From Candidatus Uhrbacteria bacterium (lineage in GTDB: Bacteria; Patescibacteriota; Patescibacteriia; UBA9934; GWF2-40-263), in the NCBI GenBank assembly GCA_016188475.1, contig JACPHT010000008.1, positions 150,192-214,191 of the forward strand: a DNA stretch of 64,000 bases. The letters are read 5' to 3'. Below the pieces are notes generated by a model. The model was not told the DNA's origin. It saw nothing but the letters and a program-made list of their open reading frames with translations, and made no database searches. Shown here in pieces: positions 4,022-61,000 of this stretch. Both the position numbers and the translations under genes were made by a program. Numbering within the stretch: the stretch's first letter is position 1; every line of letters begins with the position of its first letter.

Positions 4022-4787
4022 GATTACAAACTTAAACGAACACAAATTTCTTCGTGTATTAAGCGCGCTTGTTCTTGTCATGCTATCTTTGTTTCTTATT
4101 TTCAAAACTTGGCAAACACTACGCGAGGCAATACAGGTTGGCAAACCAACACCGAACGAGTTCACAATCAGCGTTGATGGTGTTGGTAGAGCAGAAATAA
4201 AACCTGATATTGCAAAGGTTACGTTTTCTGTTGAAACAAGAGAAAAAACCCTTGAAGTTGCGCAAAACAAAAATTCAGAAAATATGAATGCTCTGATTGA
4301 AAAAGTTAAATCACTCGATATTGACAAAAAAGATATTCAAACAAGCACCTACAACGCTTACGAAGAAAAAAAATACGATCCGCAAACTGGAACTTATGGG
4401 AACACAATCAATTGGGTCGTTAATCAAAGTATCGATTTGACAATCCGTGATCTTGAAAAAGTTTCGTCCGTTTTAGAAATAGTGGGACAAAACGGCGCAA
4501 CAAATATCTCTGGACCAAATTTTGCTGTTGAAAACGATCAGACTGCTCTTGATGAAGCGCGTCTTGCCGCAATCGCTGACGCAAAATCACGCGCACAAAC
4601 AATCGCCGAACAACTAGGTGTCAAACTGCGATCACCAATAAGTTACACTGAATGGAAAGATGGGGGCGGAATAATTTATTCCAACACTGCAAAAGCAGAA
4701 AGCGTGTCTGCCACACCACCTACAATTGAAGAAGGCCAAGAACAAGTCACGGTTCACGTTAGTATTAGTTACGCGATCAAACAATAA
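4022..4787 (+). CDS. SIMPL-domain (DUF541) protein with an N-terminal TM anchor
   Basis: Good overall resemblance to SIMPL/26 kDa periplasmic immunogenic proteins; the start was chosen at the internal M ahead of the hydrophobic segment (the track ORF starts at 3927). Confidence 0.55.
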
Positions 4788-5877
4788 ACATCGCGTCGCC
4801 AAAGGAAAAAAATCTGTATTTTTGAGCGACCGCTTCTTTGTACGCGCGCAAAACATTTTCTCTTCCAACAAAAGCTGAAACCAAAACCAACAATGTTGAT
4901 TTTGGTAAATGAAAATTCGTGATAAGTCCATCAATTATTTTGAAATCAAAACCTGGTTTGATAAATAAATTAACGTCACCTGTAAATGCGATAAAAGATC
5001 CTTCGCGGAGCTTACCCTGAGCAAAGTCGAAGGGCTCAGGATGACAACAAGAGGAAGCAACACCTTCAAGAGTCCGAACCGTTGTCGTTCCAACCGCGAT
5101 CACACGCCGTTTTTCTTTTTTTGCTTGATTGATTCGATCTGCAGTTTCTTTTGAAATCGAAACAAACTCGCTGTGCATTTCATGTTCTTCGATCGTTGCT
5201 GTTTTCATTGGACGAAAAGTTCCGATTCCAACATGAAGCGTTACAAATTCAAACTGAACGCCTTTTGATTTTAATTTTTCCATGAGATTTTCAGTGAAAT
5301 GAAACCCGGCTGTTGGCGCAGCAACAGAACCTGCCTCTTTTGCGTAAATGGTTTGATAATCTTCCAATCGCTCCGGCTTATTTTTGACGTAAGGAGGAAT
5401 CGGAATTTCGCCGTACTCATTTGCAAAAACGATAACGTCTTCTGGCGCGCGATCAAACTTCACTAAAACTATTCCGTCTGACTTTTTTTCAAAAACTTCA
5501 CAACAAAGTTTTTTAATCCCGTATTCGAGACAAATTGTCTGGCCGACTTGCACTTTTCTTCCTGGCCGCGCCATTGTTTCCCAAACATTATTTTCCCGAG
5601 CGCGCAACAAAAATATCTCAATCTCTGCTTTGACCTTTCCGACCTCTCGGTCATTTCCGACCTTTCCAATCATTCTTGCTCGAAAAACTTTCGTATCATT
5701 AAACACAAGTACGTCGCCTTCTTTAAGTTCATCAACAATCTCAAAAAATTTCTTGTGCTTCAACTTCCCTGTTTGCCTATCTAAAACCATTAGACGAGAA
5801 TGGTCGCGCGGCAAAATCGAATGTTGAGCAATCAATTCTTTTGGAAGATGATAATTGAATTCTTCAATTTGAGTCAT
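4777..5877 (-). CDS. queA: S-adenosylmethionine:tRNA ribosyltransferase-isomerase
   Basis: MTQIEEFNYHLPKELIAQHSILPRDHSRLMVLDR...VGTTTVRTLE; it carries an in-frame 9-bp repeat insertion at 5632-5667. Confidence 0.85.
   Translation of the reverse strand: MTQIEEFNYHLPKELIAQHSILPRDHSRLMVLDRQTGKLKHKKFFEIVDELKEGDVLVFNDTKVFRARMIGKVGNDREVGKVKAEIEIFLLRARENNVWETMARPGRKVQVGQTICLEYGIKKLCCEVFEKKSDGIVLVKFDRAPEDVIVFANEYGEIPIPPYVKNKPERLEDYQTIYAKEAGSVAAPTAGFHFTENLMEKLKSKGVQFEFVTLHVGIGTFRPMKTATIEEHEMHSEFVSISKETADRINQAKKEKRRVIAVGTTTVRTLEGVASSCCHPEPFDFAQGKLREGSFIAFTGDVNLFIKPGFDFKIIDGLITNFHLPKSTLLVLVSAFVGRENVLRAYKEAVAQKYRFFSFGDAMFIV
5632..5667. repeat. (GGTCGGAAA)n-family tandem repeat, in frame inside queA (encodes GKVGNDREVGKV)
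   Basis: Seen directly. Confidence 0.6.
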
Positions 5878-5938
5878 AATATGATGAATTTTCAAACTAT
5901 TGACAATCTTAGCCTGTATTGTTAATCTGCGCACGGAT

Positions 5939-6220
5939 ATGAAAAAAGCCATTCACCCAGAATTTTACGATGATGCGAAAATAACTTGCGCATGCGGAAC
6001 TGTCTACGAGGTCGGCTCAACAGAGCAAGAGATTGATGTTGAATTGTGCGCGGCATGTCATCCATTCTACACTGGAGAACAAAAGATCATTGACACAGCT
6101 CGACGTGTTGAGAAATACAAAGCACGTTCAGCGCTAAAAACAACAAAAACAACCGGAAAGAAAGTGAAGCGTGAAAAACGAGCAACTCAAAAAACAGCAA
6201 AACGAGCAAAAGAAGCTTAA
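5939..6220 (+). CDS. rpmE: 50S ribosomal protein L31 with a Lys-rich C-terminal tail
   Basis: MKKAIHPEFYDDAKITCACGTVYEVGSTEQEIDVELCAACHPFYTG. Confidence 0.9.
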   Translation: MKKAIHPEFYDDAKITCACGTVYEVGSTEQEIDVELCAACHPFYTGEQKIIDTARRVEKYKARSALKTTKTTGKKVKREKRATQKTAKRAKEA

Positions 6221-7398: not shown

Positions 7399-7436
7399 AG
7401 AGCGTGTTTTGAAGAAACAGACTGACGACTTCTACA

Positions 7437-7518
7437 AAAGAGCGGTTGTATCGTGTCGTAGGGAACAACGGCGACAGTCCGATGGCCCGGAGACACGATA
7501 CAACCGCTCTTTTTTAAC
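7437..7518 (+). repeat. Long-stem hairpin element, copy 1, with conserved core GTCGTAGGGAACAACGGCGACAGTCCGATGGCCCGGAGAC; followed by a T-run, so it is a likely prfA terminator
   Basis: A ~20-bp stem (aagagcggttgtatcgtgtc / gacacgatacaaccgctctt) encloses the conserved core, then ttttttaacc. Confidence 0.6.
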
Positions 7519-7549: not shown

Positions 7550-7578
7550 TTGACATGTATTTTAAGTGGTAGTAAATT
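7550..7578 (+). promoter_or_regulatory. Sigma70-like promoter (TTGACA, 17 bp spacer, TAAATT) driving the GC-rich noncoding region
   Basis: Seen directly. Confidence 0.45.
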
Positions 7579-7584
7579 AGACGT

Positions 7585-8736
7585 TACCGTCAGTCAAGGC
7601 AACGCAAGTTGCAATGGCAGACAAGGCCTTCTTCGGAAGGCTGAGCCCCCCTTCGGGGAGATCGCGAAAAGGGCTGTACCGGTGCAAACTGGTCAAACCC
7701 TTCAAGCAAACGGCTCAAAAGAGCCGGCCGGCCTAAAACCGGATCATCCAGCGGAAACTTCGTCGCAAACACGTCTTTAAAAGATCCCGAAAGGGATTGA
7801 GATTCCAAGTAAAGATCCAGACTCCGAAAGGGGAAAAGATCTCAAAAAGGATCAAATAAGAATGTGGATGCGAAAAGCAAACAAAGCTGGACAAGTTGCG
7901 AAGCCCAAATGCTGGACAGAGGTTGGTCTTTCATCAGCCAAACGGAGCAACGGGTAACTCAAGCTCAAATGGCTGTTGATAGCCGATCGAAAACACATAA
8001 AAGGCTTCAAAAACTTGCGACTCGGTATATAAACCGGCGAAGGTCAGTGGTCCTCTTATCAGAGGATATCACTCAGCGAAAACCAGTGGTTCTTCGGAAC
8101 TCTAACGGTCGTAGCGTCTCAACGGGAAACCAATGAGAAGGAATAAATAGAGATAAGTCCTGTAAAAAGGATAAACTCTCCACCTGAGTGAGAAAAGAGC
8201 TTCGGCTCAACACCAGTGATCAGTCCATCTGAGGTTGAATTCCGCGTGTCTACTACTACTTGAATGCGCAAGCAAACAAGGAGCAGTGACAAAGGCGGAC
8301 TCCAGAGTAATCTGGATGTAGTGTCGAGAAATCGACATATATCAACACAGAGCCAATTCGACAACCGTTACAAGGTCTGGAGTCAAGGTGAAAACCTGAA
8401 ACTCAAGCCTAACAACCAGTTTTTTGGAGAAGCTCTTCGGGGCATCACCTTTAAACCAGTTGTGAAAGCAACAGCACCCTAGACGGAGCAACAAACGAAA
8501 GCGCGTTGTATGTCGAAAAGGAGTGGCCCGGGAGTAGGAATTAACTTGAAGTGATATATTGCGAAGTGTTTGGTGAGCGCCTTAACGGAGTTCCTGAACG
8601 CTGAACAGTGTTTCATCAATGGTTGATCCCTTCTCCCTGCCACTGGGCAAACCACATCTTCATGTCACTCTGATGGTCTCTACCATCTCTCCACCTCTTA
8701 ACGGCGCTCGGCTCCTCCGACGCCGTTCTTTTTTTA
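7585..8736 (+). ncRNA. Candidate large (~1.15 kb) highly structured ncRNA of unknown family
   Basis: No ORF longer than ~120 aa in any frame and markedly higher GC than its neighbours. Many short perfect stems are capped by UUCG or GNRA tetraloops (ccttcTTCGgaagg, ccccCTTCGgggg, gagcTTCGgctc, gttcTTCGgaac, atcccGAAAgggat, tgtcgaGAAAtcgaca, ggctcAAAAgagcc). It has its own promoter and ends at a strong intrinsic terminator. Confidence 0.55.
8700..8736 (+). terminator. Intrinsic terminator (aacggcgc-tcgg-ctcct-ccga-cgccgtt followed by T8)
   Basis: Seen directly. Confidence 0.6.
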
Positions 8737-9086
8737 TAACAACACTTAACTGATTATGTTATTATCAAATATGTCTCTGTTCGCCGACATCCGCAGACTG
8801 CTTGCGTAACCGTTTGGTTTACAACGTCGCCTCACACAGTCGAGGAGTCGAAGAGCTGTGAGAAGCCAACTGCTTGGCTTCGAACCTCTGAGACGGGCTT
8901 TGTCCGATGTTCGACATAGTTGTCGAACAGGACAGCCCCTAAGCCGCCACCACTCACACTGGCTATCATTTTCGACACACGGCGGCGGTCAAGAACAGAG
9001 ATATATTTGATAATAACAATCTGTCCATTCTCGAAGCCCTTCAATGGGCGAACAACAAACTCAAAAAAGCTGGCATTGAGTCTCCA

Positions 9087-21662: not shown

Positions 21663-21693
21663 TCACACTTAACTCCCGATCGGGAGTTAAGTG
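21661..21693. repeat. Palindromic element, copy B (AATCACACTTAACTCCCGATCGGGAGTTAAGTG), between convergent gene ends
   Basis: Perfect palindrome seen directly. Confidence 0.7.
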
Positions 21694-21694
21694 T

Positions 21695-33651: not shown

Positions 33652-35457
33652 TCAAGCTTCTTTAGCCTCTCCAGCTTTTTGAACTTCTTTAATAAGCTGA
33701 TCCTGCGCGATTGTCAAATGTTCTTCTTGTCCGAAAACATTCACATCAAACGCACTGCCTTGCGTTTCCTTTTCACCGATTACAATCGTCCATGGAATTT
33801 TCATCATTGCCGCATTTCTAATTTTCTTTCCGACTTTCACATCAGAAAAATCTGATTCTACTCGAACACCAGCATCAAAAAGTTCTGTTTTTAACTTTTG
33901 CGCAAATGCAACAAAATCTTCACTCACAGTCGCAAGACGAATCTGTACTGGCGCAAGCCACATTGGAAACGCTCCACCGTAATGTTCAATCAAAATTCCC
34001 ATAAACCGTTCTGTTGAACCAAGAATCGCTCGGTGAATAACAACTGGACGTTTTACTTTCCCATCACTATCCGCATATTCGAGTTCAAACCGTTCAGGCA
34101 AATTCATGTCAAGTTGAATTGTGGACAGTTGCCACTGTCTTCCAATTACGTCGCGTACCATAAAATCGAGCTTTGGACCATAAAACGCGGCTTCGCCAAC
34201 ACCAACTTCCTTTTTCCAACCTCGACCCTCAACAAGACGTGCAAGCGCGGCCTCTGACTCTTCCCAAATTTGTGGATCGCCAATATATTTTTCACGATTA
34301 TTTGGATCGCTTGTTGAAACGCGAACCCAAAAATCTTTGAAACCAAAAGCGCGATATGTTTCATCGATCATGTCCAACATCAAATTTATTTCTTGTTCAA
34401 TCTGATCCGATTTCAAAAATACATGACAATCATCTTGAGTTAGCGAACGAACGCGTGTGAGCCCTGACAATTCCCCGCTTTTTTCATAGCGATAACATGA
34501 AGTTGTGCAAGTCCAACGCATTGGCATATCGCGATATGAATGCGCAGTGGATTTATAAAGCATCATGAAGTGCGGACAATTCATTGGCTTGAGATAATAT
34601 TGTGCTTCAGCAGGCAAATCCATTGGAGGATACATTGCGTCATACTTTTGCAAATGCCCTGAAATTTCGTACAACTTTCCTTTTGTAATATGCGGAATCC
34701 AAATCGGGACATATCCTCTTTTCTCTTGCTGTTCCATAATAAAATTCTCGATTAGCCGGCGAAGAACAGCGCCTTTTGGATAAAAAAGTGGAAGACCTGG
34801 CCCGACTTCATCAATAATTGTAAATAGTTCCAGATCTGTTCCGAGTTTTCTGTGATCTCGTTTTTTAGCTTCTTCAAGCATTATGAGATACTCGTCGAGT
34901 TCTTTTTGTGTTTCAAAAGCAAGACCATACACGCGTTGCATTTGAGGATTTTTTTCATTACCTCGCCAATAGGCTCCTGCAATTTTCCAAAGTTTAAACA
35001 CACCAATGTCTTTCACGTTTTCGATGTGCGGACCGCGACAAAGATCTGTAAACGATCCTGTGTGATAAAGAGTCGCGACATCTGGTTTGGAAATATCAAG
35101 ATCTTGCGCTTCGTCTGTTTGAATTTTTGTCGTGCCTTTTTCTTTCAAATCCTTCAACAACTCAACTTTGAAATCCTGTCCGCGTTCTTTGAAAAACGAA
35201 ACGGCTTTGTCGAGCGAAATCTCCTCGCGAACCATCTCGTGTTTTTCCGAGATAATTTTTTTCATTTCTTTTTCAATCACGGCCAGCCCTTCGTCAGAAA
35301 TCGGTTCTGGAAACAAAATGTCATAATAAAACCCGTTTTCAACAACAGGTCCAACACCAAATTTTGCTCCTGGATAAAGCCGCTCAACAGCCGCGGCCAA
35401 AACGTGCGCGGCAGTATGTCGCATTGTGTGAAGATTGTCATTCATATTATTAAACAA
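33652..35457 (-). CDS. thrS: threonyl-tRNA synthetase with a short acidic C-terminal tail (QKAGEAKEA) from the repeat motif
   Basis: MRHTAAHVLAAAVERLYPG... and class-II synthetase motifs. Confidence 0.9.
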   Translation of the reverse strand: MFNNMNDNLHTMRHTAAHVLAAAVERLYPGAKFGVGPVVENGFYYDILFPEPISDEGLAVIEKEMKKIISEKHEMVREEISLDKAVSFFKERGQDFKVELLKDLKEKGTTKIQTDEAQDLDISKPDVATLYHTGSFTDLCRGPHIENVKDIGVFKLWKIAGAYWRGNEKNPQMQRVYGLAFETQKELDEYLIMLEEAKKRDHRKLGTDLELFTIIDEVGPGLPLFYPKGAVLRRLIENFIMEQQEKRGYVPIWIPHITKGKLYEISGHLQKYDAMYPPMDLPAEAQYYLKPMNCPHFMMLYKSTAHSYRDMPMRWTCTTSCYRYEKSGELSGLTRVRSLTQDDCHVFLKSDQIEQEINLMLDMIDETYRAFGFKDFWVRVSTSDPNNREKYIGDPQIWEESEAALARLVEGRGWKKEVGVGEAAFYGPKLDFMVRDVIGRQWQLSTIQLDMNLPERFELEYADSDGKVKRPVVIHRAILGSTERFMGILIEHYGGAFPMWLAPVQIRLATVSEDFVAFAQKLKTELFDAGVRVESDFSDVKVGKKIRNAAMMKIPWTIVIGEKETQGSAFDVNVFGQEEHLTIAQDQLIKEVQKAGEAKEA

Positions 35458-35540: not shown

Positions 35541-35623
35541 AAACAGAAGCGATAGCGTCATGTCGTAGGGAACAGCGGCGAGGAGTCCGCTGGCCCGTAG
35601 ACATGGCATGTCGCTTCTGTTTG
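35541..35623 (+). repeat. Long-stem hairpin element, copy 2 (core GTCGTAGGGAACAGCGGCGAGGAGTCCGCTGGCCCGTAGAC)
   Basis: Same core as copy 1 in a different, self-complementary stem. Confidence 0.6.
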
Positions 35624-35639
35624 AAACATTCAAACCATT

Positions 35640-36833
35640 CTATTGTATTTCAATATAAACATGATCCTTCAGACGCGGTATCGTGCGAACCCAAAATGGG
35701 AAAAATTGAACTTCAACTTTTGTTGCAATACCTTCTTTTGTGAGTAGCGAGTCAACATCTTTCTCTCTCATCCCAACAAATCTTCCAACGTCAAGCGCGT
35801 TATTAACGCGCGACGGGATCGCATTCCCAGTTTGCGTTATATGCAATCGCGCAACGCCTTGTTGTGAATTGACTTGCTCAACAACAATTTTCCGATTTGC
35901 TGTTCCAAGATCAATAAATTCCTGACCTTGTTCAATTCCTTCATACAGCTTCTTTTCCGTTATCTTTGAAAGAGCGGCATTGTCAAAAAATACTCCCGAC
36001 ACTTCAACATTAAGCGACACATCAAATGCCGCAACTTTGTCGCCGGCTTTTGCTCCAACTTTCTCGTCTTTAATATCGACAGAAAATTCCTCACCAGTGT
36101 ACTTGCTTGTTAGTTGACTTCTCAATGTTGATTTTGCTTCTTCAAAAAGTTCTGCCTTGAACGAAGCAACAGCTTGATCAATTTCTTCCTGAGACAAAAC
36201 GGATTCATATCGAATTCCATCAATAAACGCCTCATTTGATTTTGCGCTCACCAACTTCTGCTTTGCTGGAGTCAAACCAGGGATCGTAAAATTTGTTGGC
36301 GCGATATTTCCACTCACACCTTTTTGATCAGCATAAACTTCGGCTGTGACACTTCCATTTGCCGGAACAGTAACTCCTTTTTTCAAACGAAACAAAACTC
36401 CATCTTGTGAAAGCAAACGTGTTGTCGCGACAAGCGGTTGGGCTGAAGACATTGTATTTGTGATTGTGACGAGCCCTGTTGCTTGATCTTCAATTTCTGT
36501 TTTTGATGTTCCAGTTGGTGTAAATGATTCAGTCTTACCAACAGTTACATTTTTAACTTCACCCTGTACTTCTCCGTCAGATGTTGCGATGCGTGTTGTG
36601 CGAACAATAAAATCTGCAACAATTTCTTTTGGAACTGCAGTGACACGTATAACAGCTTGCATTGTTGAAAGATACAAAACAACAACAAGCGAAGCGGCAA
36701 CAAGAATAACAAATGTCAAAGCAATTCTACGATATAATAAAATCGGAATCGCGTTTGTGACCTGAGTTTTTTGAACAATCGGTGCTTTCTTCACTTCAAT
36801 TCGTCGAGAAGTGACAGTTTTTTTCGTGGGCAT
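35640..36833 (-). CDS. hypothetical N-terminally anchored surface protein
   Basis: ORF with a TM anchor. Confidence 0.4.
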   Translation of the reverse strand: MPTKKTVTSRRIEVKKAPIVQKTQVTNAIPILLYRRIALTFVILVAASLVVVLYLSTMQAVIRVTAVPKEIVADFIVRTTRIATSDGEVQGEVKNVTVGKTESFTPTGTSKTEIEDQATGLVTITNTMSSAQPLVATTRLLSQDGVLFRLKKGVTVPANGSVTAEVYADQKGVSGNIAPTNFTIPGLTPAKQKLVSAKSNEAFIDGIRYESVLSQEEIDQAVASFKAELFEEAKSTLRSQLTSKYTGEEFSVDIKDEKVGAKAGDKVAAFDVSLNVEVSGVFFDNAALSKITEKKLYEGIEQGQEFIDLGTANRKIVVEQVNSQQGVARLHITQTGNAIPSRVNNALDVGRFVGMREKDVDSLLTKEGIATKVEVQFFPFWVRTIPRLKDHVYIEIQ

Positions 36834-36955: not shown

Positions 36956-37017
36956 GTCATTGCGAGGAGGAGTAAAGCGACGACGAAGCAATCTGACCCA
37001 TTGGGTCATTAGATTAA
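36956..37017. repeat. Partial copy of the GTCATTGCGAGG...GCGACGAAGCAATCT nested-palindrome family
   Basis: Matches the copies at 45530-45612 and 55811-55891. Confidence 0.5.
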
Positions 37018-37096
37018 AAAAGAGCAGTTTGTACTATGTCGAAGGGAACAACGGCGAAGAGTCCGTTGGCCCGGAGACATGGTACAAACTGCTCGA
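37015..37096 (+). repeat. Long-stem hairpin element, copy 3 (core GTCGAAGGGAACAACGGCGAAGAGTCCGTTGGCCCGGAGAC); acts as a terminator for the minus-strand gene 37204-37815
   Basis: 20-bp stem; the A-run on the plus side is a U-run on the minus transcript. Confidence 0.6.
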
Positions 37097-37203
37097 GAGA
37101 CCCCTCGGCTCAACGCTAAACTCGCTCGGGATGACAAAATAAAAAAAGAACTCTGCTAAATGACCCAATGAAGGATCAAAGACACAAAGTCCAAAGAGTG
37201 AAC

Positions 37204-37815
37204 TCATTTGGGAACAACGAACACGAACCGATGGTCGAAACCCCAGCGATCGCCAGGGAGATCCTCGAATGTGTCGAGCCAGAGACCATCCTTGTCGTGG
37301 TCGATGTCGAACACGTTGAGAGCACCGCGCGAATCGGAAATTGCTTCCATGGCAATCTGGAACCACTCTCCTTTGGTCTGATCCTTGTAAAACAAACGAA
37401 GAGCGGGACCAACTTCTGCAGGACAGAGCTGGCCACCTTGAGCCAGAATAGCAGAATAGACTTCCTTTGTAGTTCCACCGTTTGGAAGCCCAAGCTCCGC
37501 AATAGTTGCGGAAGTAAGGTTAACCTCGACCTCCTTTTTTGAACACGTAATCTTCTTCAGAAGGTTCCTTGCCCAATCACTGATCTTAAATCCAGCTGAC
37601 TCAAGCGCCTTTTCGTAAGCCTCTGGGGTTTCGTGAAGACCGAGAGTCACTGTCCGGATAACACGGAACTTCGACGACGCCCACGGATTCTCCTTGCGAA
37701 GAAACCGTTTGAAGGCTGTTAGCCACATTGTTCCATCAGAACCAGCGAGCTTTGTCCAGAAATCTTTCATGGGTCCGGCCACTTCGGCAAGAGTACCACC
37801 GAGCATTTCAGACAT
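37204..37815 (-). CDS. hypothetical protein in a GC-richer islet
   Basis: ORF. Confidence 0.35.
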   Translation of the reverse strand: MSEMLGGTLAEVAGPMKDFWTKLAGSDGTMWLTAFKRFLRKENPWASSKFRVIRTVTLGLHETPEAYEKALESAGFKISDWARNLLKKITCSKKEVEVNLTSATIAELGLPNGGTTKEVYSAILAQGGQLCPAEVGPALRLFYKDQTKGEWFQIAMEAISDSRGALNVFDIDHDKDGLWLDTFEDLPGDRWGFDHRFVFVVPK

Positions 37816-45529: not shown

Positions 45530-45612
45530 GTCATTGCGAGAGAGCGCCAGCGACCGAAGCAATCTCTTTGCTTAGATTGCTTCGTCGTCACTACGTTCCT
45601 CCTCGCAATGAC
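45530..45612. repeat. Nested palindromic element GTCATTGCGAG...cgaagcaatct-loop-agattgcttcg...CTCGCAATGAC, between pheS and rseP
   Basis: Seen directly. Confidence 0.65.
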
Positions 45613-55810: not shown

Positions 55811-55891
55811 GTCATTGCGAGGAGCGAAGCGACGAAGCAATCTATGCGAATTAAGAGATTGCTTCGCTCCCTTTTGGTCGCTCGCAATGAC
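55811..55891. repeat. Nested palindromic element (GTCATTGCGAG family); it overlaps the 5' end of the track ORF for the pilin gene
   Basis: Seen directly. Confidence 0.65.
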
Positions 55892-60839: not shown

Positions 60840-60967
60840 AATTTTAATTATGGTAGTCGTTTGTTTCAGTCAATGCAAGGTTCATCAATCAAAAATTTTT
60901 AACTTTTTCCGTATTTGAATGAGTAGAATTATACTAAACAAAATAAGAATCCTTAAAAAAGTTCAAA

Positions 60968-61000
60968 CACTTAACTCCCGATCGGGAGTTAAGTGTGATT
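60968..61000. repeat. Palindromic element, copy C (CACTTAACTCCCGATCGGGAGTTAAGTGTGATT), upstream of recG and downstream of the tRNA cluster
   Basis: Seen directly. Confidence 0.7.

Follow-up and report, generated by a model that had tools for sequence, protein, structure and literature searches.

A lineage-specific family of structured palindromic repeats with a near-invariant tip in Candidatus Uhrbacteria and related bacteria

Introduction

Much work has been done on the small palindromic repeats of Proteobacteria, Neisseria and Rickettsia, and our literature searches found none described for the Candidate Phyla Radiation, whose genomes are usually regarded as streamlined. Repetitive extragenic palindromes (REPs) and bacterial interspersed mosaic elements (BIMEs) are GC-rich imperfect palindromes with units of 20-40 nt, dispersed in hundreds of copies, mobilised by the REP-associated tyrosine transposase (RAYT; a Y1 transposase whose gene the repeats typically flank) and tagged by an unpaired 5' tail, GTAG/CGTC. 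They lie mostly between tandem or convergent genes and occasionally within genes, where they encode 20-30 extra residues. Rickettsia palindromic elements (RPEs; ~100-150 bp) reside in-frame in housekeeping genes of a reduced genome and are read as an extra peptide, which is conserved. [quoted passage not shown] Lastly, the attC sites of integrons are recognised as a folded single strand of one polarity in which structure is better conserved than the sequence of the stem and the strand is marked by unpaired bases; their conserved boxes are at the base, their tip is variable, and they occur in cassette arrays beside intI.

Here we describe hairpins from a 64,000-nt stretch (hereafter the window; all positions are in its numbering) of contig JACPHT010000008.1, assembly GCA_016188475.1, of Candidatus Uhrbacteria bacterium; Uhrbacteria are ultra-small groundwater bacteria. 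An earlier note on the window had pointed out three copies of a hairpin with a shared core and suggested a mobile palindromic element, an embedded ribozyme or a protein-binding motif rather than a plain terminator. We find that the three belong to a lineage-specific family, real and statistically solid, of structured palindromic repeats in Candidate Phyla Radiation bacteria, which appears to be undescribed, as it is absent from Rfam and our literature searches returned no description. We believe, with a probability of roughly 60%, that the hairpins are REP/RPE-like non-autonomous mobile palindromes with a tip recognised as folded single-stranded DNA, and that copies 1 and 3 of the window have been co-opted as terminators.

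Results

The window hairpins and the family to which they belong

A pattern search and a covariance model both located the three hairpins in the window sequence where the earlier note had placed them (Table 1). Each is predicted to form a single long unbranched hairpin of -49 to -52 kcal/mol with z = -9 to -11 (copy 1, -50.4 kcal/mol, z -10.3; copy 2, -52.5; copy 3, -48.8), and in the predicted folds the + strand is the more stable by 3 to 11.5 kcal/mol across the three copies (for copy 3, -48.8 kcal/mol on + vs. -40.9 on -). A gapped core pattern matched the window at copies 1-3 only, all on the + strand, and gave no match in 100 shuffles; the covariance model built from the three window copies (R1), run without filters, found no fourth copy in the 64 kb. 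The three copies do share a core, although it is 40 or 41 nt long with about five variable positions, not an invariant 38 nt. The compensatory change reported for the inner helix (CAACGG/CCGTTG vs. CAGCGG/CCGCTG) was seen as described, and the single inner-helix mismatch of copy 1 is A·A. The outer stems had been called unrelated between copies; by hand alignment the arms of copies 1 and 3 agree at ~15/20 positions, and both fit the family consensus G(G/T)TTG(T/C)(A/G)(C/T)CAT beside the core. The stem arms had no match in the rest of the window with up to four mismatches allowed, and a guide or antisense role was dropped on that ground.

Searches with a degenerate core pattern and the covariance model revealed many further copies in Uhrbacteria metagenome-assembled genomes (MAGs). 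With the loop left free, the core pattern matched 45 times in metagenome contigs (44 loci) and 49 times in GTDB species genomes (also 44 loci), and viral contigs had no match. Over all loci, 704 kb in total, R1 returned 118 hits, and ~17 of these copies have variant cores missed by the strict pattern. By pattern and model together, the family totals ~115 copies on ~90 contigs of Candidatus Uhrbacteria and related Parcubacteria MAGs, far from the three copies of the window only; as all of the sequences are MAG or metagenome assemblies, often broken at the hairpin repeats, the copy numbers are lower bounds. One unclassified groundwater MAG alone had 16 pattern matches and another MAG had 9. The carriers are Uhrbacteria MAGs, one Parcubacteria MAG, the unclassified groundwater MAG and several MAGs labelled Gammaproteobacteria. 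The loci from "uncultured Gammaproteobacteria bacterium" MAGs are L058, L060, L064, L068, L075, L076, L079, L081, L087, L089, L096 and L097. This label is probably wrong, since the proteins of these MAGs are 62-87% identical to those of other hairpin-bearing loci, including the window PrfA (74%) and contigs of the unclassified groundwater MAG.

Table 1. Positions and main features of the hairpins, and of a related core-free unit, in the 64,000-nt window.
Feature	Position	Strand	Details
Copy 1 hairpin, 78 nt	7436-7513	+	starts 38 nt past prfA stop; 81 bits in covariance model
Copy 1 outer stem			22 bp; AAAAGAGCGGTTGTATCGTGTC pairs with GACACGATACAACCGCTCTTTT
Copy 1 core, 7-nt-loop class	7455-7494	+	GTCGTAGGGAACAACGGCGACAGTCCGATGGCCCGGAGAC; A·A mismatch is third pair of inner helix
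Copy 2 hairpin	35541-35622	+	outer stem with 2/1-nt internal bulge
Copy 2 core, 8-nt-loop class	35562-35602	+	GTCGTAGGGAACAGCGGCGAGGAGTCCGCTGGCCCGTAGAC
Copy 3 hairpin	37022-37094	+	outer stem 19 bp including one T·G wobble
Copy 3 core	37038-37078	+	GTCGAAGGGAACAACGGCGAAGAGTCCGTTGGCCCGGAGAC
Outer arms of ~200-nt mosaic unit, no core	8775-9000	+	CTCTGTTCGCCGACATCC ... ACGGCGGCGGTCAAGAACAGAG; centre is other sequence

A near-invariant tip on a stem that need only pair

Across the family the hairpin is mostly 72-84 nt long (mode 75). Its predicted outer stem of ~20 bp ends T-GTC/GAC-A. Above this, G-N-A faces G-R-A in a 3x3 internal loop, a GGG/CCC helix follows, and an AA/G internal loop separates that helix from a 6-bp inner helix, CARCGG/CCGYTG, capped by a 7- or 8-nt loop, CGA(N)NAGT. 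The tip as a whole is near-invariant: T-GTC / G-N-A / GGG / AA / C-A-R-C-G-G / loop CGA(N)NAGT / C-C-G-Y-T-G / G / CCC / G-R-A / GAC-A. The constraint on the ~20-bp lower stem is pairing only. Stem positions 1-11 from the core are weakly conserved, those beyond 12 are essentially free, and pairing falls to background level past ~17-18 bp; the arms carry 0.1-0.9 bit per position, vs. ~2 in the core.

The tip is compact and highly conserved, with two internal loops and a defined terminal loop, the element is, like many small ribozymes, dispersed in multiple copies, and the earlier note had raised an embedded ribozyme. We nevertheless regard a small self-cleaving ribozyme, or another catalytic nucleic acid set in a long stem, as extremely improbable. 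The hairpin is predicted to fold without branches, translation runs through copies of either orientation, and no Rfam ribozyme matched at E up to 10. The only Rfam models that copy 1 brought up at that E value were generic long-hairpin microRNA models, well below threshold, and a scan of the whole window against Rfam 15 returned only three tRNAs above gathering thresholds.

The helices covary throughout. In an alignment fitted to the model 96.3% of cells are paired and 15 of the 20 pairs vary on both sides, a result matched by 0/500 shuffles, and sliding the partners by 1-3 columns leaves 33-41% paired; the fitting flatters these pairing figures. Compensation is seen in every helix through independent variants: GTC/GAC changes to GTT/AAC or ATC/GAT and GGG/CCC to GTG/CAC, and the inner helix occurs as CAGCGG/CCGCTG, CAACGG/CCGTTG, CAGTGG/CCACTG and CGACGG/CCGTCG. 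The ungapped outer stems of 85 distinct copies contain 1139 Watson-Crick pairs, 71 G·T and 12 A·C when read on the core strand. Some of the 71 G·T pairs are inherited within subfamilies, so that the number of independent events is overstated, but the wobbles still fall at many stem positions. Because each A·C counted here would read as G·T on the complementary strand, the imbalance indicates that the core strand specifically has been kept foldable. Covariation in all helices together with the 71:12 ratio bears out the proposal of selection on structure at the single-strand level.

The family could be a structured RNA motif selected by the host (a stabiliser in 3'-UTRs or between cistrons, a binding site for an RNase or another protein, or a small RNA), its tip binding a conserved cellular factor. 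The conserved tip, covariation of all helices through G·U intermediates and the G·T bias would all be expected of such an RNA; moreover the copies lie mainly in tandem or convergent, i.e., transcribed, spacers, and the prfA transcript certainly includes copy 1, in core orientation, at its 3' end. We consider this RNA explanation unlikely, however, as orientation to the flanking genes is random. Gene contexts, taken from naive longest open reading frame (ORF) calls, are 31 tandem, 12 convergent and 3 divergent, and among the tandem-gene copies 17 are co-oriented with the genes and 14 opposed. There is accordingly no strand bias relative to transcription, and the constant core orientation noted earlier holds in the 64-kb window only. 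The G·T excess is present in every gene-context class (9:2 in the opposed class), remaining on the core strand even where this is antisense to an operon or to tgt. In antisense copies within tgt we tallied 12 G·T vs. 1 A·C on the core strand, meaning that the hairpin is weakened in the mRNA and preserved on the other strand. Furthermore, no conserved promoter-like motif was seen in the flanks, copies are dispensable between close relatives and translated in-frame in both orientations, and Rfam holds no match.

Orientation along contigs and T-runs across the family

The orientation of copies on a chromosome bears on a second alternative, that the host retains the hairpin as a cis-acting DNA site of the chromosome of which one strand is read, for instance as a binding or loading site of a nucleoid, segregation or replication-restart protein, or as a single-strand priming signal. 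The core is near-invariant across genera, the fold is strand-specific, each genome has roughly 10-20 or more copies, and copies on the same contig are often co-oriented (5/5, 3/3, 3/3, 3/3 and 2/2), all of which would suit a site of this kind. By our own count, 11/15 adjacent pairs on the same contig agree, which is not decisive (binomial estimate only ~0.06), and four contigs are mixed. Orientation showed no link to local GC skew (33 vs. 33 loci, with signs mixed within genomes), and orientation by replication strand was dropped as a candidate. Since presence or absence also differs between close relatives, the tgt site turns over, and the tandem arrays of one MAG and the nested insertions described below look selfish, we judge a host-kept DNA site to be decidedly unlikely.

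It is also conceivable that the hairpins are ordinary intrinsic terminators that share a loop by common descent. T-runs follow copies 1 and 3 on the upstream gene's strand, A/T tracts flank some other copies on both sides, and the same genomes contain core-free terminator hairpins with an A-tract and a T-tract. Yet a T-run of at least four follows the stem in just ~9/66 copies, and the family taken together is thus not one of terminators. Copies also occur in-frame inside ORFs, several lie just upstream of gene starts, and the 40-nt loop domain, which termination does not need, is the most conserved part. A purely terminator origin is therefore very unlikely in our opinion. The earlier view that these are not plain terminators is upheld by the dispersal of ~115 copies, mostly without a T-run, and by the absence of copies 2 and 3 from a close relative.

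Copies are gained, lost and inverted

Comparison of insertion sites with relatives revealed differences in presence and absence. In L005, with a DnaE at least 90% identical to that of the window, the spacers within dnaE / 397-amino acid (aa) gene / thrS are 21 nt and 2 nt and the locus is without copies 2 and 3 and without the 203-aa gene that lies beside copy 3 in the window. The whole segment comprising the 203-aa gene and copy 3 is absent in both L004 and L005, whose 397-aa gene comes immediately after dnaE, and ~50 kb from four close relatives contained no copy. That L005 has the 397-aa gene in place without either copy led us to reject a composite transposon in which copies 2 and 3 carry this gene. 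At the copy 1 site, a related 5' arm and the beginning of a core are found in a relative whose PrfA is 95% identical, and after them come another repeat and the contig end; from this comparison, copy 1 is older.

A recurrent site is in tgt, in which nine loci have the hairpin in-frame between the residues RSLRWAKRCK and FGIVQG, eight times antisense and once sense. Of 120 listed Tgt homologues, 93 match the framing motif; of these 31 are empty (12 aa or fewer; mostly 8-9), 13 have the element antisense and 6 sense, and 43 have longer other inserts, several recognisable as other palindromic families. According to orientation, the peptide at this one site is ..SPGHRTVAAVPSD.. or ..SEGTTATVRRPGD.., so that what is kept is the nucleotide structure and not a peptide. 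In a rough neighbour-joining tree the states are interleaved: the two members of one sister pair have the element in opposite orientations (antisense/sense) between homologous stem-coded flanks, an inversion in place, and another pair is filled/empty. Together with one MAG in which the same stem occurs at five or more loci with different flanks, these comparisons lead us to conclude that copies come and go and that they flip between the arms of their own stem. The dispersed copies, the absence of copies 2 and 3 in L005 and the turnover at the tgt site support the mobile palindromic repeat that was among the readings of the earlier note.

Three further ideas were discarded. The stems might have been inverted copies of the target, but in the filled/empty tgt pair agreement with host codons was limited to the outer 6 nt (CTGTTC), an ambiguous result. 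Mimicry of a Tgt substrate, suggested by the reverse strand of the 7-nt loop (ACUGUCG), fails for the 8-nt-loop class, which is without UGU. Finally, ends of Logan contigs inside cores were considered as a sign of inversion within populations; k-mers common to the copies explain these breaks.

Other genes with in-frame copies are queA (L089) and those for a Wzy_C protein and an HD-domain protein. The recurrent hosts tgt and queA are both genes of the queuosine pathway. The queA gene of the window (4777-5952, - strand) has an extra in-frame segment, ..CCHPEPFDFAQGKLREGSF.., at roughly 4990-5050, typical of another palindromic repeat family; at this position of QueA the relative with the 95%-identical PrfA carries another insert, ..RHPACPPKPWRRRERSEGSL...

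Nesting with other repeats

Copy 3 is enclosed by the arms of a second palindromic family (36956-37135; left GTCATTGCGAGG...CGACGAAGCAATCT, right ...CTCGGGATGAC), and consequently sits within a mosaic of repeat modules. The copy is not neatly in the second-family loop, and we dropped the idea of a clean insertion into the loop of an existing palindrome. The second family is ~85-95 nt long with nested helices GTCATTGCGAG/CTCGCAATGAC and CGAAGCAATCT/AGATTGCTTCG and arms GTCATTGCGAG...CTCGSRATGAC, and its copies at ~45530-45612 and ~55811-55891 are core-free. Read in-frame it yields HCEEG..PTKQS..IAS..PRND, and in this form it is found at the tgt hot spot in other Uhrbacteria.

In other genomes, the hairpins of one subfamily are central to a larger unit of ~200 nt, which is bounded by terminal inverted repeats of its own. 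The window has the outer arms of such a unit around a different centre (Table 1); by blastn against the L020 unit, 8775-8793 is 100% and 8973-8997 is 96% identical. Conversely, a 40-nt GC-rich palindrome, CCGTCGCCGGCCGAAGCCGGCTATGGCCGGCGTAGG, is inserted after the GGCCCGG of the core in L049 (12682-12778), L031 (6743-6839), L015 (6090-6206) and L056 (4455-4512), and L015 also has CTGCCTGCCGGCAGGCAGG inside the inner helix. Both are small palindromes nested inside the hairpin element.

A 69-nt unit is repeated in tandem in the MAG CAYJVQ01 (L076 1-420, L064 3305-3402, L068 5047-5165). The unit consists of the 5' arm, the core and 15 nt and has no 3' arm, and the last member of an array is one complete hairpin. 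These arrays are always at contig ends and may be either a true tandem amplification or an assembly loop. The six matches at a 69-nt period in L076 brought a CRISPR array to mind, an idea that we rejected because the 29-nt "spacers" are identical and the contig ends there; the window copies are solitary. Elsewhere in the window a perfect 30-bp palindrome, ACACTTAACTCCCGATCGGGAGTTAAGTGT, occurs identically at 21665-21694 and 60967-60996, 39 kb apart, and would represent another repeat family or a protein-binding site.

Gene context and terminator role in the window

Copy 1, downstream of prfA, is followed by TTTTTT on the + strand (T-run 7510-7515), and an A-run at 37015-37021 provides a U-run after copy 3 on the - strand. 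The U-runs on the strand of the upstream gene are thus as the earlier note described them, and both hairpins are terminator-capable. Copy 1 is likely the terminator of prfA, and copy 3, judging from the same features, is likely that of the 203-aa gene (37204-37815, - strand), whose transcript carries the reverse complement of the core. Relative to the core, the two T-runs are on opposite strands. Copy 2 lies in a 182-nt spacer between the 397-aa gene (35640-36833, - strand) and thrS (33652-35457, - strand), and is antisense to both.

Around copies 2 and 3 is a run of minus-strand genes: dnaE, the 203-aa gene, the 397-aa gene and thrS. The 397-aa protein has an N-terminal membrane segment and no Pfam match in our scan, although a precomputed table gives a weak Baseplate_J hit; its gene is kept beside dnaE and thrS in relatives. 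The 203-aa gene also has no Pfam match, follows dnaE in the window and in the relative L003, and is missing from L004 and L005. It looks like an accessory gene that came with the block of repeats.

The region between prfA and prmC includes ~1.15 kb (7579-8735) with few ORFs and many short GC stems capped by UUCG/GAAA-type loops. Upstream of it, TTGACA at 7550 and TAAATT, whose last base is 7578, make up a good sigma-70-like site, the stretch closes with a stem and T-run at ~8700-8735, and a core-like fragment, ATGTCGAAAAGGAGTGGCCCGGGAG, lies within it at ~8510-8537. Rfam gave no match to the stretch at gathering thresholds, and it could be a large non-coding RNA or accumulated palindromic repeat modules. 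A DDE IS-type transposase-like gene (1016-1897, - strand; HTH_23, HTH_32, rve_3) and a PrgI / TraC-like / VirB4-like cluster just past the right end of the window (L010, ~10 kb to the right) adjoin no hairpin copy.

Discussion

Comparison with described systems

The hairpins resemble REPs and BIMEs in being small, GC-rich, imperfect and dispersed in many copies, in their preference for tandem and convergent spacers with an occasional intragenic copy, and in forming a strand-specific hairpin whose inner core, G-N-A-G plus a bulged hairpin, recalls GTAG plus stem. They are unlike them in several respects: the unit is ~75-84 nt, copies number in the tens, the tip is conserved and the base stem free to vary, and G-N-A-G, in which N may be G, C, T or A, is situated in a 3x3 internal loop rather than in a 5' tail. 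There is no GTAG/CGTC tag, and a search with the E. coli RayT found no RAYT in the 788 kb around the copies. With RPEs the family shares palindromic repeats in a reduced genome that stand in-frame in housekeeping genes and are read as extra peptide. The RPEs are described as unrelated sequence families, and the two orientations at one tgt site, with two different peptides, have no counterpart in the conserved peptide of the RPEs. MITEs are likewise non-autonomous long hairpins that can make terminators or RNase sites, invert and nest, and some hairpin copies are central in a ~200-nt unit with terminal inverted repeats, but the family itself has no fixed terminal inverted repeats (its arms vary), no visible target-site duplication and no recognisable parent IS. 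The parallel with attC is in the probable recognition of one folded strand, in structure outweighing stem sequence and in unpaired bases that would mark the strand; the layout is the reverse of attC, with the conservation in the tip, and the hairpins are dispersed with no recombinase among their recurrent neighbours. In summary, distribution, turnover, in-frame insertion and nesting match the descriptions of REPs, RPEs and MITEs, yet the family appears to lack features that define each of them, among them the constant peptide of the RPEs. Of the proposed MITE/REP/Correia-like identity, the mobile-palindrome behaviour stands, and the tag of the REPs and the fixed terminal repeats and target duplication of the MITEs are missing.

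How the hairpin may move

In the mobile palindrome that we favour, a trans-acting enzyme would recognise the element by its invariant tip and act on it as a folded single strand of one polarity. That strand is most likely single-stranded DNA, because the strand that folds is usually not the transcribed sense strand. Copies land in the spacers of tandem or convergent genes, or in-frame in what are presumably tolerant protein loops. After insertion, a hairpin of about -50 kcal/mol with a T-run on the transcribed strand could, as far as can be read from sequence, serve as an intrinsic terminator or a 3'-end stabiliser; such a role of copies 1 (prfA) and 3 (203-aa gene) would be secondary.

Several observations weigh against this explanation. 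No transposase, RAYT or integrase is found beside the copies, the recurrent neighbours being housekeeping genes, and the E. coli RayT gave only chance-level tblastn matches (E of at least 1) and no phmmer match in the 788 kb around the ~115 copies. Neither a target-site duplication nor a conserved flanking motif was seen outside the stems. Mobility is deduced from the comparison of MAG and metagenome assemblies, in which no transposition is directly observed, and the strand-specific fold could reflect an unseen RNA of the core strand. Finally, conservation of the core far exceeds that of the stems, including at sites common to different genomes, for example the spacer between dnaJ and tgt in L043 and L101. 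Simple decay after insertion would not be expected to give this pattern, which requires that each copy be under purifying selection or that copies be continually converted or re-inserted. A more specific proposal, which we put forward as a speculation and hold to be rather unlikely, is that a so far unrecognised mobilisation system of Candidate Phyla Radiation bacteria, specific for single strands, acts on the ~34-nt tip folded on one strand; its agent could be a recombinase or nuclease with no relation to RAYT, or even the nucleic acid itself as a catalyst, and it would keep restoring the tip while the base stem drifts. Restoration or re-insertion of the tip would explain cores that are identical across genera where the stems have been wholly replaced.

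Significance for Uhrbacteria

In these ultra-small bacteria the hairpin family and others repeatedly remodel spacers and add peptide to housekeeping enzymes (Tgt, QueA). The repeats break metagenome assemblies at predictable points, and in annotation the family explains odd inserts of 20-30 residues and spurious small ORFs in Uhrbacteria MAGs. Its copies are also a natural marker for strain-level population genetics of Uhrbacteria, and the invariant tip on a free stem, read on one strand, is a handle for finding the partner enzyme.

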